Positions 6,957 to 48,239 of a stretch of DNA of 64,000 bases are shown here, piece after piece. The stretch is from assembly GCA_963843575.1 (NCBI GenBank), contig CAWJKZ010000025.1, forward strand, positions 160,001 to 224,000. Reading direction: 5' to 3'. A model generated the notes under the pieces. The model was not told the origin of the DNA, searched no databases, and saw nothing but the letters and a program-made list of their open reading frames with translations. Each line of letters starts with the position of its first letter. Position 1 is the stretch's first letter. The position numbers and the translations under genes were made by a program. Source of the stretch: an uncultured Acidobacteriota bacterium. Its GTDB lineage: Bacteria > Acidobacteriota > UBA6911.

Positions 6957-8150
6957 ATGAGCATTCGGCGAGGGCGCATCGCACGCCGCGATTTCCTGGC
7001 GGGAGCGGCCGCCGGCGGCGGCCTGGCAATTGTCCATCCGCGTAGCGTGCGGGGCACCCAGGCAAACTCGGCGATTGAGATCGGCATCATCGGGGCAGGG
7101 GGACGCGGGGTCTGGCTGGGAGATCTCATCCACAAAAACACCGGGATGAAGGTCGTGGCACTCTCCGATCCTTTTGAGGACCGCCTCGCGCGAGGACGCG
7201 ACAGGCTCGGAGTCGAACCTGCACGTTCCCACCTCGGGATCGCAGGGTACCAGGAACTGCTGTCCTCGAAGCTCGACGCGGTCGCCATCGAGAGCCCGCC
7301 GTATTTCCACCCGGAGCAGACCGGGGCGGCGGTGCGCGCCGGCAAGCACGTCTACCTCGCCAAACCCGTCGCGGTGGACGTACCCGGCTGCAAGGCTATC
7401 ATCGACGCCGGGGAACGGGCAAACGGCCGGCTGAGTTTCCTGGTAGACTACCAGACCCGCAGCACCCCCTACTTCGTGGAAGCGGCCAGGCTGGTCCGTG
7501 ACGGGGCAATAGGGAAACCCTCATTCGGCCAAGTCTTTTACCACGCCGGCAGGTTGATGCCCCAGAAGAACTCCGCCGACTCGGCAGGGGCGGCGCGGCT
7601 GCGCAACTGGGTCTTCGACCAAGTCCTGTCGGGCGACATCATCGTGGAGCAGAATGTCCACGTCCTCGACGTTGCCAACTGGTTCCTGCAAGGTCACCCC
7701 ACCAGCGCCACCGGCAGCGGCGGCCGCAAGGTGCGCACCGACGTGGGAGACTGCTGGGATCACTTCATCGTAAGCTACCGCTACCCCGGCGACGTCCTGG
7801 TCGATTTCTCGTCCACGCAGTTCGTCCTGGGGTTCTCGGACCTGTGCTGCAGGATCTTCGGCACCCTGGGCACCGTCGACGCCCACTACGAGGGGCCCGT
7901 ATCGATCACCGGAAAGAACCGCTACGAGGGGGGCTCTACCAAGGGGATGTTCGCCACCGGGGCGATCGCCAACCTAAAGGCCTTCGAGCAGAGCATCCGC
8001 GACGGCAAACTCCTCAACAACGCCGAGGAGAGCGCGACCAGCTCCCTCACGACCATCCTGGGACGCAAAGCCGCATACGAAAACCGGCGCGTCTCCTGGG
8101 ACGAAATGATGAGCGACGCCACTCCCCTGAAGGCCGACCTCGTCCTCTGA
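6957..8150 (+). CDS. Tat-exported Gfo/Idh/MocA family oxidoreductase
   Basis: RBS GAGGAG; twin-arginine signal (ARRDFL); GAGGRG Rossmann motif; HVYLAKPVA; EQNVHVLD. Confidence 0.9.
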   Translation: MSIRRGRIARRDFLAGAAAGGGLAIVHPRSVRGTQANSAIEIGIIGAGGRGVWLGDLIHKNTGMKVVALSDPFEDRLARGRDRLGVEPARSHLGIAGYQELLSSKLDAVAIESPPYFHPEQTGAAVRAGKHVYLAKPVAVDVPGCKAIIDAGERANGRLSFLVDYQTRSTPYFVEAARLVRDGAIGKPSFGQVFYHAGRLMPQKNSADSAGAARLRNWVFDQVLSGDIIVEQNVHVLDVANWFLQGHPTSATGSGGRKVRTDVGDCWDHFIVSYRYPGDVLVDFSSTQFVLGFSDLCCRIFGTLGTVDAHYEGPVSITGKNRYEGGSTKGMFATGAIANLKAFEQSIRDGKLLNNAEESATSSLTTILGRKAAYENRRVSWDEMMSDATPLKADLVL

Positions 8151-9442: not shown

Positions 9443-10783
9443 CTAAATGAACTTGCGGATCGCGGCGTTCTGCTCCAGCCACTCACGGAACTTGGGATGG
9501 GCGATGCCGATCAGCGCACGGCAACGCTCCCGGATGGTCTTGCCGTGGAGCGGGGCGGTACCGTATTCGGTGATGACGTAGTGGACGTCGCCGCGCGTCG
9601 TGACGACGCCGGCGCCATCGGCGAGGCGGGGCACGATGCGGCTGATCGTCCCGTTTTTCGCCGTCGACGGCAAGGCGATGATCGGCTTCCCCCCCTTGCT
9701 GCGGGAGGCACCACGGATGAAATCGACCTGGCCGCCGATGCCGCTGTAAAAAGTGAACCCGAGGGAATCGGCGCACACCTGACCGGTGAGGTCCACCTCG
9801 AGCGCCGAGTTGATCGCGACCTGCCGGTCGTTGCGGCTGATGATGAACGGATCGTTCGTGTACTGGCTCGGGTGAAACTCGAAAATGGGGTTGTTGTCGA
9901 TGAACTCGAAGAGGCGCCGTGTCCCGAGCACAAACCCCAGGATGATCTTGCCGGGGTGCAGCGACTTGCGTTCGTTGTTGATGACCCCCTTCTCGATCAG
10001 GTCGATGACCCCGTCGCTGACCATTTCGGAGTGGATGCCGATGTCCTTCTTCTCGACGAGGAAATTCAGCACCGCGTCGGGGATTTCTCCGATGCCCAGC
10101 TGCAGGGTCGAGCCATCCTCGATCAGGTCCGCGATGTAGCGTCCGATCTGGTGCGCCACATCGGACACGCCACCCTGCGGATACTCCAGGATCTCCTCGG
10201 TGACCTCGACCACGTGGTGGATCTTGTTCAGGTGAATGAAGGAGTCTCCCAGGGTGCGCGGCATCTTGGGGTTGACCTGGGCGATGACCACGCGCGCGTG
10301 CTCGGCCGCCGTCTTCGTGGTGTCGACGCTCACGCCGAAGCTGCAGAAGCCGTGCTCGTCCGGAGGGGAAACGTGAATGAGGGCCACGTCGATCGGGAAC
10401 GCGGCTCCGAAGAGCGATTCCACCTCGCTCAGGAACACGGGAATGAAGTCGGCGCGTCCCTCGTTGATCGCCTCCCTGACGTTGGCGCCGGCAAAAAATG
10501 CGACGTGGCGGAACTTGCCTTCCATTTCCGGCCGCACGTACTCGGCTTTCCCGCGCGTGAGGAGGTGGATGACGTTGACGTTGCGCAGTTCGCCGGCGCG
10601 GTCCACCATCGCCGCTATCAACCTCTGCGGCTCCGCACAGCCGGGGTGGATGTAGACCGTCGAGTTGCTCTGGATTTCACGCACGGCCTCCTCCGCCGTG
10701 CACCGTTTCCGCCGGTAGCTGTCAAGCCAGGCGGCAACCCGGCCGCCTGCCCGCTTCGTCCCCATCACTGGCATCTTCGACAT
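9443..10783 (-). CDS. Acetyl-CoA hydrolase / 4-hydroxybutyrate CoA-transferase family protein
   Basis: STLQLGIGEIPDAV, GIHSEM, SGIGGQVDFIRGA, VVTTRGDVHYVITEYG. Confidence 0.92.
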   Translation of the reverse strand: MSKMPVMGTKRAGGRVAAWLDSYRRKRCTAEEAVREIQSNSTVYIHPGCAEPQRLIAAMVDRAGELRNVNVIHLLTRGKAEYVRPEMEGKFRHVAFFAGANVREAINEGRADFIPVFLSEVESLFGAAFPIDVALIHVSPPDEHGFCSFGVSVDTTKTAAEHARVVIAQVNPKMPRTLGDSFIHLNKIHHVVEVTEEILEYPQGGVSDVAHQIGRYIADLIEDGSTLQLGIGEIPDAVLNFLVEKKDIGIHSEMVSDGVIDLIEKGVINNERKSLHPGKIILGFVLGTRRLFEFIDNNPIFEFHPSQYTNDPFIISRNDRQVAINSALEVDLTGQVCADSLGFTFYSGIGGQVDFIRGASRSKGGKPIIALPSTAKNGTISRIVPRLADGAGVVTTRGDVHYVITEYGTAPLHGKTIRERCRALIGIAHPKFREWLEQNAAIRKFI

Positions 10784-10825: not shown

Positions 10826-11941
10826 TCACACGTTGAGCGACTCGATCGGCACATAGGGCCAGCCCAGCAGGCCGGCGAGCCCTTCGTGTGTGCACCGTCC
10901 CCCGAGGAGATAGACACCCCGGCGCAGCATGGCGTTTTCGTGGACGGTTTCAGCCCCCTTCTCGCCCACCTCCTCGACGAAGGAGAGCACCACGTTGTTG
11001 AGCGCGTGTGAAGCCGTGCGGGCGACCGACGACGGGATGTTGGGCACGCAGAAGTGGGTGACCCCGTGCTTCTTGAACACGGGATCGGTCAGCCGGGTCG
11101 GCCGGCTGGTTTCCACGCACCCGCCCTGGTCGATGGAGACATCCACGATAACGCTCCCGGGCCGCATCTCGGAGACCATGCCTGCCGTGACGACGTGAGG
11201 AGTCTTCCGGCCGTGGATCAGGACGGCGCCGACCACAACGTCCGCCATGCCGACGTGGCGCTCGACGTTGTAGGGTGTCGCGAGGACCGTGTTCGCCGAC
11301 TTGTTGAGCAGTACCTCGAGCAGACTCAACCGCCGCAGGTCCACGTCCATGATGGTCACGTTCGCGCCGCAGCCGAGGAAGATGCGGGCGGCGGTGGAAC
11401 CGACCGTTCCGGCGCCGATGATGACCACGTTGGACGCCGGGATCCCGGCAACCCCGCCCAGCAGGACGCCTCGCCCCCCCTGGGTGGTCTCCAGGAGTTT
11501 GCCGGCGATCTGCGGCAGAAGCATCCCGGCGATTTCGCTCATGGCCGTGACCACCGGCAGATAGCCGGTGTTGTCCTCGATGAGCTCGTAACCGACGGCG
11601 GTGGTTTCGCGCTCCCTCAGAGTCTCGAGCACCTTGGGATTCGCCGACCCCAGGTGCACCGTGCTGAACAGGATCCGGCGCTCGGGGATCCACGCGCACT
11701 CGTCCAGCGTCGGAGGCATGAACTTGACCACCAGGTCGGCGCGCGCGAAGATCTCTTCCGGCGAGAACACGAGTGTCGCCCCTGCGGCTTCGTACTCGTG
11801 CCCGGAGAATCCGCTCCCCAGACCCGCTTCGGACTGCACGATGACCGAATGCCCGAGCTTCGCCAGGGCATAAACACCCGCAGGGGTGAGGGCGACGCGA
11901 CGTTCTTCACCCCAGGTCTCCTTGGGAATACCGATGATCAT
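10826..11941 (-). CDS. ald: Alanine dehydrogenase (divergent paralog)
   Basis: MIIGIPKE..EERRVALTP, MSEIAG, IIGAGTVG, DVSIDQGGCVETS, HFCVPNIPSSVARTAS. Confidence 0.85.
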   Translation of the reverse strand: MIIGIPKETWGEERRVALTPAGVYALAKLGHSVIVQSEAGLGSGFSGHEYEAAGATLVFSPEEIFARADLVVKFMPPTLDECAWIPERRILFSTVHLGSANPKVLETLRERETTAVGYELIEDNTGYLPVVTAMSEIAGMLLPQIAGKLLETTQGGRGVLLGGVAGIPASNVVIIGAGTVGSTAARIFLGCGANVTIMDVDLRRLSLLEVLLNKSANTVLATPYNVERHVGMADVVVGAVLIHGRKTPHVVTAGMVSEMRPGSVIVDVSIDQGGCVETSRPTRLTDPVFKKHGVTHFCVPNIPSSVARTASHALNNVVLSFVEEVGEKGAETVHENAMLRRGVYLLGGRCTHEGLAGLLGWPYVPIESLNV

Positions 11942-39263: not shown

Positions 39264-40799
39264 ATGCTCTTCCGGGTTCAATCCGCTGCGGTCTTCGGCA
39301 TCAAAGCCTACCTGGTCGCGGTCGAGGTCGACCTGGCCGCGGGCAAGAAGATGAACTTCATGACCGTTGGCCTGCCCGACACGGCGGTGCGGGAGAGCAG
39401 TGAGCGGGTGAGGGCGGCGCTGCGCAACTGCGGCTATCAGCTGCCGCCGCAGCGTATTACCATCAACCTGGCTCCTGCCGACGTGCGCAAGGAAGGATCG
39501 GCCTTCGACCTACCGATGGCAATCGGCATTCTCGGGGCAGCGGGCTCGGTACGTACGCAGAACCTGTCCGGCTATCTCTTCCTGGGAGAGCTGTCGCTCG
39601 ACGGCTCGATCCGGCCGGTGAAGGGAACCCTTTCGATGGCCGTCATGGCCCGGGAGAAGGGGCTCGGGCGGCTCGTGCTTCCCGAGGCCAACGCCGGCGA
39701 GGGCGCCGTGGTTGACGGCGTCCACGCCTTTCCCGTACGCACTCTCCCCCAGGTGGTCGAGCTGCTCAACGGACGCGCCCCCTGGATTCCGCTGGTCGTG
39801 GATCGGCGGCAACTGCTGGAGCAGAACGGGGTCTACGAGGTGGACTTCCGGGACGTGCGGGGACAGTACCAGGCCAAGCGCGCGCTCGAGGTCGCAACGG
39901 CCGGCGGGCACAACATCATCCTCATCGGGCCGCCCGGCTCCGGCAAAACGATGCTCGCGCGGCGGCTGCCGACCATTTTGCCCGCCATGACCTTCGAGGA
40001 GGCGATCGAGACGACCAAGATCCACTCGGTCGCGGGCCTGCTTTCGGAAAAGAACGGTCTGGTCGCGATTCGCCCGTTTCGCGCGCCGCACCACACGATC
40101 TCCGACGGCGGGCTGATCGGCGGCGGCAGCACGCCGAGGCCGGGCGAGGTCAGCCTGGCGCACAACGGGGTGCTGTTTCTCGACGAATTCCCCGAGTTCC
40201 AGCGACACGTGCTCGACGTCTTGCGCCAGCCGCTCGAGGACGGCGACGTGACGATCAGCCGGGCGTCGATGTCGCTGACCTTTCCGGCGCGCTTCATGCT
40301 GGCCGCCGCAATGAACCCCTGCCAGTGCGGCTGGTCGGGCGATCCCGAAACACGAATGCACCTGCACGGTGCCGCTCATCCAGCGCTACCTCGCCCGCAT
40401 CTCCGGGCCGCTGCTCGACCGCATCGACCTGCACATCCGGGTGCCGGCCGTGAAATACAAGGAGCTCGCGCAGGACGAGACAGCCGAAGCCTCGGCGGCG
40501 ATCCGCGAGCGCATCGTCGCGGCCGGCAGATCCAGTTCCGCCGCCTGGAGGCCTTCGGTTTGTTCTGCAACGCACAGATGACGCCGCGCACGCTGCGCCG
40601 CTTCTGCAAGCTCGACTCGGAGTCCGAGAAGCAGATGGAAAACGCCATCACGCGGCTCGGGCTGTCGGCGCGCGCCTACGACCGGATCCTCCGCGTCTCG
40701 CGGACGATCGCCGACCTGGCCGGCGAGGAGAAGATCCAGGCGCGGCACGTCTCCGAAGCCATCCAGTACCGCACCCTCGACCGCACCTACTGGCAGTGA
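39264..40799 (+). CDS. comM: YifB/ComM Mg-chelatase-like AAA+ ATPase (compensating frameshifts at about 40355-40520)
   Basis: VGLPDTAVRES, NLAPADVRKEGSAFDLP, GPPGSGKTMLARRL, RPGEVSLAHNGVLFLDE; RISGPLLDRIDL in the alternate frame; LSARAYDRILRVSRTIADL. Confidence 0.93.
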   Translation: MLFRVQSAAVFGIKAYLVAVEVDLAAGKKMNFMTVGLPDTAVRESSERVRAALRNCGYQLPPQRITINLAPADVRKEGSAFDLPMAIGILGAAGSVRTQNLSGYLFLGELSLDGSIRPVKGTLSMAVMAREKGLGRLVLPEANAGEGAVVDGVHAFPVRTLPQVVELLNGRAPWIPLVVDRRQLLEQNGVYEVDFRDVRGQYQAKRALEVATAGGHNIILIGPPGSGKTMLARRLPTILPAMTFEEAIETTKIHSVAGLLSEKNGLVAIRPFRAPHHTISDGGLIGGGSTPRPGEVSLAHNGVLFLDEFPEFQRHVLDVLRQPLEDGDVTISRASMSLTFPARFMLAAAMNPCQCGWSGDPETRMHLHGAAHPALPRPHLRAAARPHRPAHPGAGREIQGARAGRDSRSLGGDPRAHRRGRQIQFRRLEAFGLFCNAQMTPRTLRRFCKLDSESEKQMENAITRLGLSARAYDRILRVSRTIADLAGEEKIQARHVSEAIQYRTLDRTYWQ

Positions 40800-40841
40800 G
40801 GAACCGAATCGACTCCGGGTTCAGTCGTCGTGAGGGGAGTC

Positions 40842-40985
40842 GTGGCGAGGACGATTCTTCTTGTCGAAGATCACGAAGGGGTGGCCAGGGTCACAAGAAA
40901 TGATCTGATTCTGACGGATATCGGGCGAGGGGTCCGATGGACGGCATCGAAGCCGCGCACCTGCTGGCAGTGACGCCGCAGAGAG
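40842..40985 (+). pseudogene. Remnant of a receiver-domain response regulator
   Basis: After RBS GAGGGGAG: MARTILLVEDHEGVARVTRNDLILTDIG, then frameshifted PMDGIEAAHLL; internal deletion and truncation. Confidence 0.6.
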
Positions 40986-41246
40986 AACGGCGTCGCATCA
41001 CGGGTTTCCGCGGATTCTCACGAATCGGGTCCATGCCCGACTGGGCGGCTGGTGTCGCCTGCACGGAGGAGTGCACCGCTCTGCCGATCCGTGCCGGTCC
41101 TTCCTGGTTTTTCCCTTGACTCGCCGTGTATTTGGATATAGGTAAGAGACAAGAGAAATGAATGTCGACTACTACCGCGACTAGCACCAACGGCTAAAAT
41201 GCTCTGAGCACGGCAACTCGACGTTGTTTTTTCCTGGTGCGCGCAG

Positions 41247-41705
41247 ATGGAGACGCAGTGCGTGACAGTTTTCGATCGCATCCAGCGATTGCGCCCGGGA
41301 GACATCCCATCCCTTCTGCGAATCACGACCATTCTGTTGGCGCTGCCCTTCCTCTTGCGACGACTGCCGTTGAACAGGCTTTTGCACCTTCTTGATGCTA
41401 AACCGCTCCAAGCAGCCGATTCTCACTTATCTGTCGAACGGCACATCTCCCTGGCTCGCGGGCTACTCCACTTAAACATCGGACCGTTTCGACCCAACTG
41501 CCTGACGCAATCGCTTATATTGTTCCACCTCCTGCGTCGGTTGGGTCTTCCTGTACGCATTCATTTCGGGTTGGCAAGGCGGCAAACCAGACTCCAGGGA
41601 CACTGCTGGTTGGAATCCGATGGAAAACTCATCGCCGAAAAGGCGGATCCGGCGCGCTTCTACCGGAGTGTATACACGTTTCCGGATCGTTCTCTGGTGC
41701 AATAG
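41247..41705 (+). CDS. Lasso-peptide-type B2 leader peptidase (transglutaminase-like)
   Basis: PNCLTQSLILFHLLRRLG...IHFG...LQGHCWLE, the Cys/His catalytic motifs of lasso B2 proteases. Confidence 0.9.
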   Translation: METQCVTVFDRIQRLRPGDIPSLLRITTILLALPFLLRRLPLNRLLHLLDAKPLQAADSHLSVERHISLARGLLHLNIGPFRPNCLTQSLILFHLLRRLGLPVRIHFGLARRQTRLQGHCWLESDGKLIAEKADPARFYRSVYTFPDRSLVQ

Positions 41706-41734
41706 ATCCGGTGCAATAGAAAGGAACACCCGTG

Positions 41735-41908
41735 ATGGCCGAATCAAACACCCCACATGACAGCGACCTTGCCCGCAATCTCGCAAGAGAGCGACAGGAT
41801 GCAGCTCCACGGAAATCGGACAGGAAGTCGTTTGTGAAACCTGAATTGACGAAACACGAATCTCTCCCTGAGGTGACCACGGCATTCTTCGCGACCTTCC
41901 AACCTTGA
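41735..41908 (+). CDS. RiPP precursor peptide, 57 aa (lasso-type leader; predicted core AFFATFQP)
   Basis: Below the ORF-track cutoff. RBS AAAGGA; MAESNTPHDSDLARNLARERQDAAPRKSDRKSFVKPELTKHESLPEVTTAFFATFQP*; FxxPxL-x9-T matches the lasso leader YxxPxLxxxGxxxxxT. Confidence 0.85.
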   Translation: MAESNTPHDSDLARNLARERQDAAPRKSDRKSFVKPELTKHESLPEVTTAFFATFQP

Positions 41909-42957
41909 GAGACTGCAAGGTGCCCGGAACGTCGATTCCGAACCGGCGAGTTGTGTCCCGTATTCCGCTCCCTTTGCCTTCGCACTCCGCGGGAAAGGAC
42001 TACCTGCTTCACGGCCTCTTGGTGCGTGTCGATTGCGACAACAAGCGCCTTGAACTGCAGGTCCATTCTACCCTCGAGCAGTTTGGGCTGGTGCCGTCCG
42101 ACCAATATGGAATGGTGCCTGACGTGTCCCTGACGCTCCGCACTGCGGCTGGCCGATTATGCGTTCCTGGCAAGAGTCGCCTTTTGGCCGAGCAGCATGG
42201 CATACGAATTTCGAGTGCCCGGAACGATGTCTATCTCGAGGATGGCGACAATGTCGCTCGCCTGAGTCCGCATTCGGCAAGCGGTATCGCCACGATTCGT
42301 GCGGGAGCGCCGAGAACGCGGGCGCTGCGGGGAGACCTGCTTCTCCACTGCCTCCTTCTTTTGCTGAGGTATCGGGATCTCTTTACGGTGCACGCTGCAT
42401 GTGTGGCCCGAGACGGAGCGGGATGCATGTTGGTGGCCGAGGGAGGTTGCGGCAAATCCACCCTCATGTTCGCCCTTGTCCGGCACGGCTGGAACTACCT
42501 CTCCGATGACGTCAACCTCCTTTGTCCGCGGGGTTGCGACGTGCAGGCTCTGCCGCTCAGGAGAGATCTGTCGCTGCACATCACGGCTGCTCGCAGATAC
42601 CCCGAAATAAACGATTGTCGCGACTCCATTTCCATGACTCCGGATTCGAAGCTTCGTCTGAATCTGCTAACGCTCTATCCCAACCAACTCGCTGCCGCTT
42701 GTCTTCCGCAACTACTGCTTTTCCCTCGGATCCTACGCGGGCCGACCAGTCGACTTGAACCGATGCCCAAGCCTGAGGCCTTGTGGCATCTGATCAAGCA
42801 GAGCGCTTTGCTTTTTGTGGAACCCACTATGGCGCCCAGACATGTCGATCTTCTCAGGCGGCTGGTAGGCCAATGCAAAAACTATTCCCTCGCAGCGGGG
42901 ACGGATCTCGAGAAAGACCCAGGCGCGATCTCCGGTTTGGTGGACGGCATCACCTAG
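41905..42957 (+). CDS. HPr kinase-related P-loop kinase
   Basis: TVHAACV, Walker A AEGGCGKST, WNYLSDD, LLLFPRI; start codon uncertain. Confidence 0.85.
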   Translation: MRDCKVPGTSIPNRRVVSRIPLPLPSHSAGKDYLLHGLLVRVDCDNKRLELQVHSTLEQFGLVPSDQYGMVPDVSLTLRTAAGRLCVPGKSRLLAEQHGIRISSARNDVYLEDGDNVARLSPHSASGIATIRAGAPRTRALRGDLLLHCLLLLLRYRDLFTVHAACVARDGAGCMLVAEGGCGKSTLMFALVRHGWNYLSDDVNLLCPRGCDVQALPLRRDLSLHITAARRYPEINDCRDSISMTPDSKLRLNLLTLYPNQLAAACLPQLLLFPRILRGPTSRLEPMPKPEALWHLIKQSALLFVEPTMAPRHVDLLRRLVGQCKNYSLAAGTDLEKDPGAISGLVDGIT

Positions 42958-42971
42958 AGAATTCTCGAAGC

Positions 42972-43982
42972 ATGACAGCAAAGCCGGGTATGAGATTAAA
43001 CTTCGAGCTAACCAATCTCTGCAATCTGCGGTGCATACATTGTCTTAGAGAAAGAGGGGCCCCTGGCGAGTACCTCTCTGTCTGCCTGGTCGAAAAGGTC
43101 CTTGCCGAGATGCAGTCGTACAGCAGTTTCGAGTTGGTCAGCTTTGGAGGAGGCGAGCCGACCCTGCATCCCGGGCTCGATACGATCATAGGACTCGTGA
43201 CCCGCCATGGGTATCGGTTCGCTTTTGTGACCAACGGCTGGCAATTTCAAGAGACATTCCGGATTCTGAGACCCTATCTCGGATTCCTGGAGGGAATCTC
43301 GTTCAGCCTCGACGGCGCCAACGAGGCCAGTCACGATGCCCTGCGGCTTCGGCCCGGCTCCTTTCGCCAGGTGATTCAGGCCATTGTTTTGTCTCGTTCA
43401 CAAAAAATCGCCTCTCACATAAACATGGTCGTCACCAAAGCAAATCGCACAGAGCTGGAAGACATGGCCTCACTGGCAAGCCATCTGGGTTGTTGCATCC
43501 TGGATTTCGCGCACTGCCAGCCGACGCCGGATGCCGTCGCCGCCGGGTTGGTCCTGAACTCCGAAGAGCGTCAGCAGGTGGAAGCAGATATTGCCGAGTT
43601 GCAGCGGATCTACAGGATGAAAATCCGCCTTGCGGGAGATCATCATAGCCCTTTGCGGTTCTATCAATGCCCGCAGTTGCGCATGGAGGAACTCAATGTC
43701 GACTACCGCGGCCGGCTGACCTTGTGCTGCATGCTCTCCAACTACCGGGGAGGCACTCCCGATACGGACGTGATCGCCGATCTGAACGAGGTGTCCCTCG
43801 CAAAAGCACACCTGCGCCTCATTTCCACGATTGCGGAGCTCCAACGCGAAAAGGTCACACTTCTGAACCGAAAGCCGGCAACGAAAGAGGATTCCTTCAT
43901 TTGCACGCACTGCCTCATTCACTTCAAAAAGGTGCCCGATATCCGGCGGATCCTGGAGCCGTCCCGAGGTGTGGGCACTTAG
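42972..43982 (+). CDS. Radical SAM peptide maturase with SPASM/twitch domain
   Basis: ELTNLCNLRCIHC, SFGGGEPTLHP, VTNG, SLDG..HDALR; C-terminal C-x13-G-x4-CC and CTHC. Confidence 0.9.
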   Translation: MTAKPGMRLNFELTNLCNLRCIHCLRERGAPGEYLSVCLVEKVLAEMQSYSSFELVSFGGGEPTLHPGLDTIIGLVTRHGYRFAFVTNGWQFQETFRILRPYLGFLEGISFSLDGANEASHDALRLRPGSFRQVIQAIVLSRSQKIASHINMVVTKANRTELEDMASLASHLGCCILDFAHCQPTPDAVAAGLVLNSEERQQVEADIAELQRIYRMKIRLAGDHHSPLRFYQCPQLRMEELNVDYRGRLTLCCMLSNYRGGTPDTDVIADLNEVSLAKAHLRLISTIAELQREKVTLLNRKPATKEDSFICTHCLIHFKKVPDIRRILEPSRGVGT

Positions 43983-43996
43983 TCTCTGGAGGTCTT

Positions 43997-44284
43997 ATGT
44001 CGGCTTCCGAGCAGCAATTCCGCTGCCATCCAAGCGTCGTCTTCACCCGTCTGAGCGAAAACGAGGCGGTCCTGCTGCATCTGGACACGAAAAGGTACTA
44101 CTCCCTTAATGAAACCGGGGCGCGCCTTTGGGAACTCCTCCAGGATGGAAGGGTCCCGGATACTCTCTGCGAAAAAATCCTCGAGGAATATGACATCGAC
44201 GACAACAAGGCCCGCGGCTTCATCCGGGAGTTTCTGGATGAGTTGCGCAGGGAAGGCCTTGTGGAATCCGGTGGTGGCCACTGA
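43997..44284 (+). CDS. PqqD-family RiPP recognition element (lasso B1-like)
   Basis: RBS GGAGG; EAVLLHLDTKRYYSLNETGARLWELL...LEEYDI...FLDELRREGLV. Confidence 0.92.
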   Translation: MSASEQQFRCHPSVVFTRLSENEAVLLHLDTKRYYSLNETGARLWELLQDGRVPDTLCEKILEEYDIDDNKARGFIREFLDELRREGLVESGGGH

Positions 44285-44290
44285 GGAATT

Positions 44291-45670
44291 ATGGTTCCTG
44301 CCAGGAGCAGTCTGCCCGTGAATAAGAAAACGGCCGATTCGAATTCGGCTTCGGGAGTTCCGTCTCCAGATGCATCGCTGCCTCGACTGAAAACCGGGCG
44401 ACTCTGCCCCGCCGATCAAATGCATGTGATTGAGATGCCTGCCGATTTCTTACGCAGCCCGGTGCTCCCGGAAACAAAACTGCTGCTAGAATGTGCCTCC
44501 CTCGAAATAGCGGACGAAAGGGCACGGCGAATACGGAGCATCGTCGGCGGGAACCTGGATTGGACGGCTCTTATCGAGCGAGCACTCCGGCATGGCGTCA
44601 TGCCGCTCCTGTATCGCAACCTTCTGCTCGTTTGTCCGGATGCTGTTCCCGCGTCACACCTCGAACATCTTCGGGATGTGTTTTCACGTCAATTCGCGGC
44701 GCTGCCTGCTTTTCGCGGGGCGGCTGGTCGAGATCCTGCGACTGTTGGAGGCCAACAATATAACTGCAATACCGTACAAGGGCCCCGTGCTGGCCGCATC
44801 AGTGTATGACAACCTTGTACTTCGGCAGGCCGGCGACCTGGATATCCTGGTGCATTCTCGCGATGTGTCCAAAGCCAAAGCGTTGATCTCGTCCCTGGGA
44901 TTTTTCGGATCGGGACCGAATGACCTCGGACGTTGAGGCGATTCGTGCCCGATCGGACTATGAGTTCCGGCTGGTCAGCAAAGCGGACGACCTTTACGTC
45001 GGTCTTCACTGGAACGTCTGGCCGGCGTCTCAGCATTTCCCACTGGAGAGCCTGCACTTGTGGGAACGTGTTGTGCCTTTTCGGTTCGCGGGAGCGTTGG
45101 TCCCATGCCTCAGACGAGAGGACCTGCTCATTCTACTCTGTGCGCACGGAGTGAAGGACGTCTGGCCGAGGCTCATCTCCGTCTGCGATATTGCGGAGTT
45201 GATCCGGACATCCGAGCACCTGGACTGGAATTGCACTCTCCACCAAGCGGAGAGGCTTGGGCTCAGGCGGGTTCTTCTGCTTGGGCTGCATCTCGCTCAC
45301 GCGCTCCTGCAAACGTCTCTGCCCCAATCGATCTCTAGCGGGATCGAAAAGGACGATGCGCTTGCATCACTGGTCGAAGAAGGCACATCAGCGCCTGCTT
45401 TCAGGACCGCGAGCCCCGGAGCCCCTCGAAGGTTCCCTCTACTATCTGAGGTCACGTGAGCGGTTGCGAGACAGACTCAGGGGCTGTGCCGGTATAGTAC
45501 ACCAGTACAATTGGATGACTCCCCGGATTGTGGATCGGACGGTCCTGCCGCTGCCCGCCTCACTTGAGTTCATCTACACCCTGCTCTGGCCCATGCGCCT
45601 GGCAGGGAGATATATCCTCCGTCCAGTGAGACGTGCAATCAGGACTCTCAGGCAAGGCATCGGGTGGTAG
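44291..45670 (+). CDS. Nucleotidyltransferase family protein (NTP_transf_5-like); frameshifts near 44685, 44925 and 45385
   Basis: LDWTALIERALRHGVMPLLY / IPYKGPVLAASVYDNLVLRQAGDLDILV / VGLHW...LLILLCAHG...CDIAELI / LYYLRSRER across four frames. Confidence 0.85.
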
Positions 45671-45751: not shown

Positions 45752-48239
45752 TCAGTTACCTCCTGCACTTACGGTCCCCCAGATATCCACAGAGAAGCTG
45801 AACCGGTTCCGGTTAGCCAGGCCGATCCTGAATCGGACGGTGGCTGATTCATTCGGCAGAAGCGTGTCGTCAGTTCCGGCATCAATCGCCTGCTTGCTAC
45901 CCACCGCTCCGTTGCCTTCGTGAGCGCTGAGAAGTTTGTTCCCGTTGGTCAGCGTCGCCACAACCGCCTTGATCGGTTCCCAGATATTCTGCTGGCTCTT
46001 GTTGGTTAAACGGGCAGTGATCGTATAGACACCAGCAGGACCGCCGTAAACAGGAGTGGTACTCAAGGAGGAGCTTTGGACCACGAAGTTCACCTTGTCA
46101 TTGATGAGCTGCAGTTGCGGCAAACCGGACAGATTCGTGTCTAGTTTGACAATAAAGCCCTCATTCTGTTCCCTGGTGCTATCTGCCGACCCTGCCCCTG
46201 CCAATCTGGGAATGTCAGGGCCTGTAAAACCTGCCAAATAGAGGTCCCCAACACTATCAAGAGCCACAGCACTGACGTATATACCTTGTCCCAGCAGCAA
46301 TGCTGATGCGAGGTTAACGCTAAGATCTGAATTCAGCTTCGCCACACAGACTCCGTCATTTGTGGTACCACCCACGTAAACACCCGTGCTTCCAATGGCA
46401 AGAGACTCATCAGTACAGCCACGAGTCCCCCCCGAAAAACTGGCAGCCACAATTGAACTCAGATCTGAACTCAACTTTGCCACAAAGCCTCCGAAGTCTG
46501 CAGCAACAGTGCTCTCGGCGGAGCCGGGACCTACGCCTGGAAAATCCGATGATCCCGTGCGACCGGATACATAGACAATTCCTGCGTCATCTAGGGCGAG
46601 GGCATATATCTGATCGATGTTGCCACTTCCACCAAGAAACGTAGCTGCCAGAATGGAACTCAGAACCGAATTCAGCTTCACCACAAACCCTTCGGAACCA
46701 GATGCGGTGCTATCGGCGGACCCTGAACTTATACCTGGAAAGTCGCCTGAGACTGTGGTACCAGCCGCATAGACTGATCCACTGCCATCTAAGGCGAGGG
46801 CTGTAACGGTCTCGAAATACCGTCCTCCTAGGAAAGTTGCCGCCACAATGGAACTCAAATCCGAATTCAGCTTGGCCACGAAGCTCTCCCCTCCACTATC
46901 ATAAGGTTCGGGGACTCAAAAGTGCGATCGGCCGAGCCTAGACCTATTCCAGGAAAATCGGCTGATCCTGTAGAACCGCCCACATAGACATTCCCTGTAC
47001 TGTCAAGGGCGAGGGCCTCAGGCGCATCTACACCACTTCCTCCAAGGAAGGTAGCTGCCAGGATTGAGCTCAGCTCTGAGTTCAGCTTTGCAACAAAACC
47101 TTCTGATCTATACGTTTTGGGTAGCCGGTATGTTTAGCAAGTATGCGATCGGCTGAACTTGGACCAATGCCTGGAAAATCCGCTGAGGAAGTAGTACCGA
47201 CTGCGTAGACATTCCCAGCACCATCAAGCGCGAGGGCATTCAATGATTCATAATTGCTTCCCCCAATGTAGGTAGCAGCCAAAATGGTGCTTAGATCTGA
47301 ATTCAGCTTCGCGACAAAACCATCTCCTCCAGCAAGTGTGAGATCTGCCGACTCCGAATCTATACCGGGAAAATTGGGGGAGCCTGTGTCACCTGCCACA
47401 TAGACATTCCCCATGTTGTCCAAGACAAGGGCATGAAGTTCATCATTATTAATTCCCCCCAGGTAGGTCGCCGCTAGTATCGGGTCGATGACAAGCTCCC
47501 GGGTCTGGTCGTACTCCCCGACCTTAAAGCTGTATCCATTGCCTCGTAGCTGATAGGCAACTTCGACTGGCTCTCTCTTTCCTCCCTGCTCCTGAGACGC
47601 TAACGGCTTTGAGAACCTCACCGTCCCTTGGTCTGTCTCTACCTCCAGTTCTCCGCTCTCGTTGACCTTAATTCCCTTCCCCCCGCTGAGCTTCATCTGG
47701 ATCGTCTCTGGCTCGGCCCCCGGCTTTACATAAAACAGCTTCTCCACATTGTTCCCATAGGCTTTGAATTTGACGTCGATCCCTTGATAGACTTCTCCCA
47801 GACTCACCCGGTCGTAGCTGGGCAGGTTGCTCTGCCATTTCGATCGGTCATTCCCCCTGAAATAGCTCACCCGGGTCGCTGTCCGGCTTTCGCCTTTAAC
47901 CTCCCTCACCTTCGCGCCGATGAGCTCCTCTCTCAGCACCACCCCCTTCGCTGGTTTCTCTCCCTCCAGCTTTGGAAGGGAGTACACCAGTTCGCCTTTC
48001 TTTGTAACCGAGACTGTTCCGGCAAACGTCCGGGCGGTGAACTTCACCTCTTTACTGCTCTGGCCCCGATTGGGGATAAAGGGAATCTGGACCTTGGCCA
48101 GCTTCTGTTTCGCCTCAGCTCCCACGGCATTCGAAGAGCTATTCGAGCTAGCCTCTGCCAGTTGCGCTATCCCCAGCGCCAGCGACAACCAGACCATGAT
48201 CTGCACCGAAAAAGTGGTGTGACAATTCCAGGTTTTCAT
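45752..48239 (-). CDS. SBBP (beta-propeller) repeat secreted protein (frameshifts near 47110 and 46915)
   Basis: N-terminal FIPNRGQ...VSYFRGNDRSKW...VYQGIDV...LVIDP, followed by repeats ILAATFLGG...ALALDxxGNVYVAGxTxSxDFPG...GFVAKLNSDLS. Confidence 0.85.

Follow-up and report, generated by a model that had tools for sequence, protein, structure and literature searches.

The window analyzed in this work is a stretch of 64,000 nucleotides from an uncultured Acidobacteriota bacterium (contig CAWJKZ010000025.1 of assembly GCA_963843575.1, positions 160,001 to 224,000), and all coordinates given below refer to it. We propose, with a probability of roughly 80%, that the open reading frame (ORF) at 41735-41908 on the + strand is the precursor (A) peptide gene of a compact operon of six genes for a peptide that is made on the ribosome and modified after translation (RiPP), with the leader, core and enzyme roles described below. 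The genes of the operon are tightly packed and all lie on the same strand, in the order B2 peptidase, precursor, HprK-like kinase, radical S-adenosylmethionine (radical-SAM) enzyme, B1/PqqD chaperone and NTP_transf_5 transferase. The precursor gene is genuine and conserved, and it is syntenic with the operon enzymes. Lasso peptides are defined by their cyclase; the present pathway, as judged from its sequence, is a RiPP pathway built of lasso parts in which this class-defining enzyme has been replaced.

The ORF has an ATG start, 57 codons and a TGA stop, and its translation is MAESNTPHDSDLARNLARERQDAAPRKSDRKSFVKPELTKHESLPEVTTAFFATFQP. The leader is predicted to comprise residues 1-49 (41735-41881, +), and it contains F33-V-K-P36-E-L38, that is, the pattern F33-x-x-P36-x-L38 at -17 to -12 relative to the putative cleavage site, with E42 at the position usually occupied by Gly in lasso leaders and T48, 15 residues past F33, at -2. 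The predicted core AFFATFQP (residues 50-57) occupies 41882-41908 (+) together with the TGA stop. The last eight residues include three Phe and one Thr, while Asp, Glu, Cys and Ser do not occur among them. All of this, from the coordinates and the translation to the leader spacing, the Glu in place of Gly, Thr48 and the composition of the core, had been described in an earlier reading of the same DNA (hereafter the original prediction), and is reproduced here.

The accuracy of the sequence was checked with Logan contigs from four public runs, each of which holds small parts of the stretch and which leave 42720-45500 uncovered. Two of them (X1 and X3) are RNA-library runs of one study, and their contigs both span the entire ORF including the stop. 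The X1 contig covers 41701-42060 with 0 differences and 0 gaps relative to the window, and the X3 contig covers 41716-42003 with 0 gaps and one T>C exchange at 41828, which changes Ser32 to Pro. Neither contig has a gap anywhere between the start and the stop of the ORF, which excludes an indel introduced there by assembly, and the core AFFATFQP is accordingly not truncated; the frameshift extending the core that the original prediction had considered is absent from the contigs of both runs. The Ser32Pro variant directly precedes the leader motif, and the X1 contig is identical to the window at this position. Two further runs, recorded as 'DNA?', gave contigs over parts of the kinase gene. The RNA-library contigs over the precursor are also a weak hint of transcription, weak because they are contigs and because RNA libraries can contain DNA.

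A profile hidden Markov model built from 8 precursor-like ORFs of related clusters finds the window ORF with an E-value of 4e-23 among 22,745 stop-to-stop ORFs. In a sample of the phylum, relatives of the radical-SAM enzyme with 33-39% identity are present in 10 of 400 same-phylum genomes, and seven loci of those 10 genomes have a short ORF with a K-K-x-F-V-E-P-E-L leader just 5' of the kinase gene. Pfam annotation of 94 neighbouring ORFs in the relatives shows B2, kinase, radical-SAM, PqqD and NTP_transf_5 as recurring families, and no cyclase. A first scan of genome contigs with the single radical-SAM protein found no relative. Alignment-based scans of public collections yielded 80 genome loci, nearly all titled as Acidobacteriota metagenome-assembled genomes, and 80 metagenome loci; kinase and/or PqqD genes, with others, adjoin the radical-SAM gene in 55 of the 80 genome loci. 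Of 172 related loci, 96 have a precursor-like ORF (E <= 1e-3) upstream of their radical-SAM gene, 87 of these ORFs being of the VDVLEAT[T/A]FFQ type, 5 of the 'EKQI' type and 4 of the F-F-G-x-F type, which is that of the window. A lack of conservation beside homologous clusters was one of the two findings that would have refuted the original prediction, and the assignment of the ORF as the precursor that belongs with the B2, kinase, radical-SAM and PqqD genes around it is borne out by both the profile match and the synteny in relatives.

The six-gene order of the window recurs in eight loci (L016, L019, L023, L045, L121, L173, L176 and L187). The precursors of L045 and L121 read ...FVEPKLTKHGELTKVTGAFFGAFSPGAED. 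The genome with L187 is from the same family as that of the window, and the L187 precursor is ...YVKPKLTIHGSLKELTGFFGGFTP. At L188, where only the precursor, kinase and radical-SAM genes are visible, the precursor reads ...FVEPKLTKHGKLEKITGSSNAGFFGTFVDSD. Among clusters of the VDVLEATTFFQ type, L020 has three precursor copies (7087-7308, 9638-9889 and 11356-11580) and L022 has two (7479-7742 and 10464-10745). These two clusters also have extra LTD and 2-oxoglutarate-Fe(II) oxygenase genes, and HTTM and glycosyltransferase genes occur in the related L017 and L021.

To characterize the family more broadly, a profile of eight precursors (A3) was run against 1,835,955,588 representative proteins. 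It retrieved 31 proteins at E <= 1e-3, each a representative of a cluster at 50% identity, all of them 44-65 aa long and matching over leader and tail. Pooled with the loci, these library proteins give a family of 41 distinct peptides. The leader motif [F/Y/M]-[V/I]-x-P-x-[L/V/I/M] is present in all 41, and 34 of them have Thr, the other 7 Ile, at +15 from the leader aromatic. The spacing from which the original prediction had derived Thr48 at -2, and hence the putative cleavage before Ala50, is in this way kept in 41/41 members. At the leader 'Gly' position, Gly occurs 24 times, Asp 13 times, Glu 3 times and Ala once. With the cleavage taken two residues past the Thr/Ile, the cores are 7-18 residues long (exactly eight in 9/41), and they end in Pro in 27 members and in variable tails after the motif in the other 14.

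A seven-residue motif, F-F-[G/A]-x-[F/Y]-x-P, can be recognized in 34 of the 41 cores, which provides the core pattern that the original prediction had hoped to extract from ORFs near homologous radical-SAM genes. Position 1 is Phe in 29/34; position 2 is Phe in 23/34 and otherwise Ile, Val or Leu; position 3 is Gly in 30/34, Ala in 2/34 and Ser in 2/34; position 4 is variable; position 5 is Phe in 32/34 and Tyr in 2/34; position 6 is Ser in 17/34, Thr in 9/34 and another residue in 8/34; and position 7 is Pro in 33/34 and Val in 1/34. The window sequence F-F-A-T-F-Q-P fits this motif, and the relative P0020 ends with GFVGTFQP, its last four residues being the TFQP of the window. The motif fit and this shared ending indicate that the eight-residue core belongs to the normal range of the family and has not been cut short. 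Four precursors of the EKQI type (L016:10674-10826, L173:2745-2897, L176:765-917 and P0005) share residues 1-43 without a difference, and all variation among them falls in the last 8 residues; such an identical leader half with a varying end is the usual RiPP signature of leader plus core.

Cys occurs in 0/41 cores, and a naive lasso test (Asp/Glu at core positions 7-9 and a tail of at least 5 residues) is passed by only 2/41. The triplet F/Y-x-P is found in 33/41 cores. In triceptides, a radical-SAM enzyme family of their own crosslinks an aromatic-X-X motif. The invariant motif aromatic has a Ser or Thr as its immediate neighbour on at least one side in 41/41 cores, compared with 24/401 for Ser/Thr at other core positions, a pattern that we take as a lead and not as a statistic because it was noted post hoc and among related sequences. 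The 8 members that lack Ser/Thr after the motif aromatic all carry one before it. As a lead, the pattern would fit a kinase acceptor next to the site of the radical chemistry, which in the window would be Thr54 beside Phe55, and Thr54 is indeed the residue that the original prediction had put forward as the possible kinase acceptor. The C-terminal Ser that it ascribed to lasso kinases is not their only site, since BsfK and LppK phosphorylate Ser3 (PMC10368454 for BsfK, PMC13381572 for LppK).

We now consider which lasso features are kept and which are lost. The leader has, by its sequence, the geometry of a lasso leader: positions -17, -14, -12 and -2 are occupied by the aromatic, Pro, Leu and Thr, respectively. 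Lasso leaders use these positions, with Ile or Val as a rare substitute for Thr at -2 (PMC10368454). At E <= 1, the NCBIfam lasso-leader models NF033528 and NF033521 each match 18/36 relatives. When 20 relatives were scanned singly, the matches were confined to the leader part, and only P0013 reached a cut-off (21.1 vs 19). The chaperone gene encodes a PqqD-family RiPP recognition element (RRE) of 95 aa (43997-44284, +) that matches PF05402 with 70.5 bits and stays below the cut-offs of NF033530 and NF033536. A PqqD profile run against solved proteins finds TbiB1 (E 3.3e-17) and TfuB1 (8.6e-13) ahead of the PqqD of pyrroloquinoline quinone (PQQ) biosynthesis (1.5e-3), and by this similarity the chaperone is of the lasso B1 type.

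The complex of the chaperone with precursor residues 25-57 was also modelled, as the original prediction had suggested for the RRE and the leader. The predicted complex scores 0.58, compared with 0.02 for the best of 3 controls, with a contact agreement of at least 88% between runs and a partner pLDDT (predicted local distance difference test) of at least 59. The mark applied to such scores is reached by 116/157 solved complexes and by 2/215 mismatched pairs, and it is reached at 0.60 or below by only 18/157 solved complexes and by both of the passing mismatches, so that the model supports binding only weakly. Since lasso B1-leader complexes have already been solved, the pass may moreover reflect no more than likeness to them.

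On the side of the lost features, the Asn-synthetase-like lasso cyclase (PF00733) was found neither in the window cluster nor in 10 annotated related loci. A search of the entire genome (6.68 Mb in 27 contigs, 88% complete) gave one partial PF00733 match of 27.1 bits; it lies on another contig, in a frame of 274 aa, and covers 22-76 of the 354 model positions. Lacking a cyclase, an acceptor Asp/Glu and a tail, the window peptide cannot, on the encoded residues and genes, be a lasso peptide, and the original prediction was right in judging a lasso ring impossible.

The remaining enzymes of the operon can be described as follows. Directly upstream of the precursor lies the gene of the lasso-type, transglutaminase-like B2 leader peptidase (152 aa, 41247-41705, +), which matches NF033537 (lasso_biosyn_B2) with 63.7 bits against a cut-off of 33, and PF13471 with 57.9 bits. 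When 4 B2 proteins of this cluster type are aligned, Cys85 and His119 do not vary, and a sequence search of solved structures gave no relative of the protein. The HprK-like P-loop kinase (345 aa, 41920-42957, +) has a weak match to PF07475 (E 8.6e-4) and scores 61.9 bits with TIGR04352 (HprK_rel_A), which is below the cut-off of 200; its P-loop, GGCGKST, is present, a TTG at 41905 is an alternative start, and its synteny is kept in relatives. Downstream of the chaperone, the NTP_transf_5 nucleotidyltransferase-like gene (44291-45670, +) consists of at least four frame segments, with PF14907 matched in two ORFs of different frames, and with tblastn it aligns to the intact homologue in L018 only through frames 2, 3, 1 and 2. 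The remaining five operon genes, about 3 kb, are open and align with relatives over their full length. Neither a transporter nor an immunity gene was found among the genes of the window operon.

The radical-SAM enzyme (336 aa, 42972-43982, +) matches PF04055 with 70.2 bits. Its CxxxCxxC motif reads CNLRCIHC (residues 18-25), a fused RRE is absent, and a putative Cys-rich auxiliary domain makes up its C-terminal part. The C-terminal residues Cys 233, 252, 253, 311 and 314 are invariant in 9 radical-SAM sequences, and no SPASM model is among the listed matches; a full SPASM domain has seven Cys. Sequence matches to solved structures cover the radical-SAM core alone (SkfB 1e-18, BlsE, PqqE 2.2e-15 and YydG 1.3e-8). 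The structure model has a pLDDT of 84.5, and the nearest folds are SkfB (first), BlsE, DesII, SuiB, CteB, viperins, PqqE and anSME, at 14-20% identity. On the basis of the model, the enzyme would belong among the peptide-modifying radical-SAM enzymes with an auxiliary-cluster domain.

Three chemistries were considered and rejected. A sactipeptide or ranthipeptide is discarded by the lack of Cys in any of the 41 cores. The splicease motif is Tyr-Gly, and the residue preceding Gly is here Phe, Val, Leu or Ile and not Tyr. B12-dependent methylation is likewise rejected, a cobalamin domain being absent from the Pfam matches.

A tree was calculated for 49 radical-SAM sequences, namely all 9 whose precursor is of the F-F-G-x-F or EKQI type, 22 drawn at random from the 85 of the VDVLEATTFF type, and 18 of the 76 without a detected precursor; L188 and two others were left out on account of short or interrupted matches. 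The enzyme clades follow the precursor type, with Shimodaira-Hasegawa-like approximate likelihood ratio test (SH-aLRT) values of 98 for EKQI, 100 for L045+L121+L187 and 99 for VDVLEATTFF. The smallest well-supported group that holds the window enzyme (97) is composed of the four F-F-G-x-F sequences and a clade of stand-alone enzymes. The well-supported sister clade (L014, L015, L026, L034 and others) is made up of stand-alone genes, with no kinase, PqqD, B2 or precursor-like ORF nearby, and the one in L015 adjoins an extracytoplasmic function (ECF) sigma/anti-sigma pair.

A number of observations concern the surroundings of these genes. An 11-bp word, GGTGCAATAGA, occurs in two copies 14 bp apart at 41696-41720, a stretch that overlaps the B2 stop codon and lies just 5' of the precursor start. 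The repeat may serve as an operator for a regulator, or it may have arisen by chance. When 40700-42200 was scanned for promoters and terminators, there were 0 promoter-like sites and 2 terminator-like sites against 1.2 expected, nothing that could be used. About 1 kb upstream of the operon, a ComM/Mg-chelatase-like gene (39264-40799) has about 60 residues of Arg/Pro/Ala-rich nonsense between well-conserved flanks, which suggests two compensating indels, and the assembly may accordingly carry indel errors. On the - strand, 45752-48239 holds two adjacent SBBP beta-propeller-repeat genes, one of them with DUF7948, that are not kept beside the cluster in relatives. A protein-atlas search matched unnamed clusters only, with a best score of 0.91, and is used as a lead only.

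The mechanism that we propose would start with binding of the leader motif F33-x-x-P36-x-L38 by the PqqD/B1 chaperone, which would present the precursor to the other enzymes. The radical-SAM enzyme, taking the place of the lasso cyclase, would then modify the F-F-A-T-F-Q-P tail. For this reaction we would guess first at an intramolecular crosslink that involves the invariant Phe55 or a residue adjoining it, and second at an epimerization. The kinase would phosphorylate Thr54, the hydroxyl residue beside Phe55, and B2, together with B1, would cut after Thr49 to release the eight-residue AFFATFQP. Where a relative has kept its transferase intact, this enzyme may extend or decorate the phosphate. 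The HprK-like kinases of lasso clusters act on the precursor while it bears its leader and, helped by B1, phosphorylate a Ser of the core (PMC10368454), and the kinase of the linear polyphosphorylated peptides (LPP) acts likewise (PMC13381572).

Several points weigh against this assignment. The enzymatic steps, i.e. the cleavage, the phosphorylation and the radical-SAM chemistry, are all inferred. The radical-SAM enzyme has only 33-40% identity to any relative found, with none above 38% from the alignment-based scans, and in the tree its branch is long (1.29) and is attached to a context-less clade with a value of only 78, which is weak. The distribution is patchy, the cluster being present in 11/401 sampled genomes of the phylum and in 3/137 of the class (both counts include the window genome), and a search of the genus's one further genome (81% complete) did not find it. 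Because the 31 library proteins come without genomic context, their link to such an operon is inferred from their sequence. The window precursor itself has no match to NF033521 or NF033528 at E <= 1, its core carries the rare Ala at motif position 3, and the transferase gene, as read from its frames, is either broken or mis-assembled. The post hoc nature of the Ser/Thr pattern belongs to the same account.

These points bear differently on the possible alternatives. That the frame might be open by mere chance, in intergenic DNA rich in GC, could be argued from the many spurious overlapping ORFs (178 of at least 40 aa in 19 kb) and from a word-index search with the single precursor peptide, which gave no homologue; the profile E-value of 4e-23, the 31 library proteins and the conserved position and strand beside the kinase gene have already refuted it. 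An ordinary lasso precursor, whose core was shortened by an assembly indel or whose cyclase is encoded elsewhere, would account for the lasso-type leader, B1 and B2, and the apparent frameshifts in two nearby genes of the assembly and a genome that is just 88% complete leave some room for it. Against it stand the contigs from two other runs, which span the ORF and its stop without an indel, the terminal Pro shared by 27/41 relatives together with the TFQP end of P0020, and the lack of an acceptor Asp/Glu plus tail in 39/41 cores, while PF00733 is absent beside the cluster and from the 10 annotated relatives and has one partial 27-bit match in the genome; this explanation is close to being refuted. 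It is unlikely, yet deserves to be taken seriously, that the family is real and the pathway copy in the window is decaying, with the full product no longer made. The four frame segments needed by the NTP_transf_5 gene, the rare and patchy occurrence of the cluster (3/137 class genomes, and not found in the sister genome of the genus) and the rare core Ala for Gly (2/34) would all fit that case. The other five genes are nevertheless open over about 3 kb and full-length relative to their relatives, the ComM gene about 1 kb upstream also has compensating frame errors, which points to assembly indels rather than decay, and an RNA-library contig identical to the window covers the precursor, with the reservation about DNA in such libraries made above.

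The remaining alternatives concern the product. AFFATFQP may not be what is released, either because a small crosslinked fragment is excised in the manner of PQQ and mycofactocin, both of which are made by PqqD and radical-SAM pairs, or because the cleavage takes place elsewhere and gives a longer product. TIGR03962 and TIGR02109 are among the weak matches of the radical-SAM core, the conserved unit spans just about 7 residues with variable tails in 14/41, and the window operon lacks a transporter, all of which would suit such an outcome. The Thr/Ile at -2 in 41/41 members, on the other hand, fits B2 cleavage right before the core (accessible text of PMC10368454), and no second peptidase is conserved in the annotated clusters, so we regard this as improbable. 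A related and equally speculative idea, for which we would give only long odds, is that the operon makes a new peptide-derived small molecule, cofactor or signal of the PQQ/mycofactocin kind, and not an antibiotic-like peptide. The PqqD-guided radical-SAM enzyme would in that case crosslink the invariant Phe/Tyr to the neighbouring Ser/Thr-bearing stretch, and the kinase and nucleotidyltransferase would then add a phosphate or nucleotide handle. There is some room for it in that the 7-residue motif recurs, that the hydroxyl residue is always adjacent to the invariant aromatic (41/41) and that the compact window operon has no transporter or immunity gene. The assignment as the precursor of a six-gene RiPP operon with an eight-residue core is the reading that we retain. 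With a substrate of 7-8 residues that has one invariant aromatic and an adjacent Ser/Thr, the radical-SAM reaction is directly testable in vitro, and a product that turned out to be a phosphopeptide with a crosslink, or a fragment resembling a cofactor, would constitute a new RiPP class.

Finally, the operon can be compared with known systems. With the RiPPs crosslinked by radical-SAM enzymes (sactipeptides/SkfB, streptide/SuiB, triceptides and darobactin) it shares the enzyme fold (SkfB, SuiB, CteB, PqqE) and an aromatic-rich short core. It differs from them in its Cys-free cores (41/41), in the lack of a fused RRE and in the removal of the leader by a lasso B2, and the sequence matches are limited to the radical-SAM core domain, at 14-20% identity. 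The F-F-G-x-F-x-P motif was not found in the literature consulted. An HprK-like protein, a PqqD-like protein and a radical SAM/SPASM enzyme are encoded together in the cassettes known from TIGRFAMs as 'HPr-rel-A' and SynChlorMet (SCM). The scores with the corresponding models are all far below the cut-offs, namely 61.9/200 for TIGR04352, 27.2/35 for TIGR04353, 23.8/125 for TIGR04249 and 67.5/400 for TIGR04251. In the full-text literature searched, which does not cover subscription journals and closed supplements, we found no description of a pathway that combines B1/B2, a kinase and a radical-SAM enzyme. In the accessible text of the RRE-Finder study, roughly 300 'false positive' lasso-type RREs beside radical-SAM enzymes are mentioned and not followed up (PMC7470986), and the present operon type explains part of them.

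The PQQ (PqqA/D/E) and mycofactocin (MftA/B/C) systems are similar in that a PqqD-family chaperone presents a short peptide to an auxiliary-cluster radical-SAM enzyme, which acts on a conserved aromatic near the C-terminus, and in that a peptidase follows. The chaperone of the window is much nearer to lasso B1 (3.3e-17 vs 1.5e-3 for PqqD), the cut-offs for PqqE and MftC are far above the scores of its radical-SAM enzyme, the operon has a kinase and a transferase in addition, and the substrate motif is another one.

The LPP systems (Popov et al., Nat Commun 2026) are also lasso-derived and have no cyclase, and they combine a separate RRE, a kinase that is HprK-like, an NTP transferase and a YxxP-type leader, as described in the accessible text of PMC13381572. 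According to the same text, they differ in that they come from Bacillota, have no radical-SAM enzyme, neither 'radical SAM' nor 'rSAM' being mentioned in it, and show variable C-termini. Their leader is YxxPxVLxHQxIxFETxxS, whereas the leader here reads FVKPELTKHESLPEVTT, and their leader peptidase is a signal peptidase I of archaeal type instead of B2 (PMC13381572).

Compared with phosphorylated lasso clusters, the operon has no Asn-synthetase-like cyclase and contains a radical-SAM enzyme, and its cores are 7-18 residues long, 39/41 of them without acceptor and tail, with the conserved motif at the C-terminus. Paeninodin and pseudomycoidin are products of such phosphorylated lasso clusters. 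The likeness to this group, as exemplified by Bsf of Bradymonas in the accessible text of PMC10368454, extends to the leader, Y/F(-17)-x-x-P(-14)-x-L(-12) with Thr/Ile at -2, and to the discrete PqqD-type B1, the transglutaminase-like B2, the HprK-like kinase and the NTP_transf_5-type transferase. The lasso leader, B1, B2 and the tailoring kinase and transferase appear here joined to a radical-SAM enzyme and to a Phe-rich core that is very short and strongly conserved, a natural example of how a RiPP pathway may evolve by exchange of its class-defining enzyme while the leader-handling module is kept.

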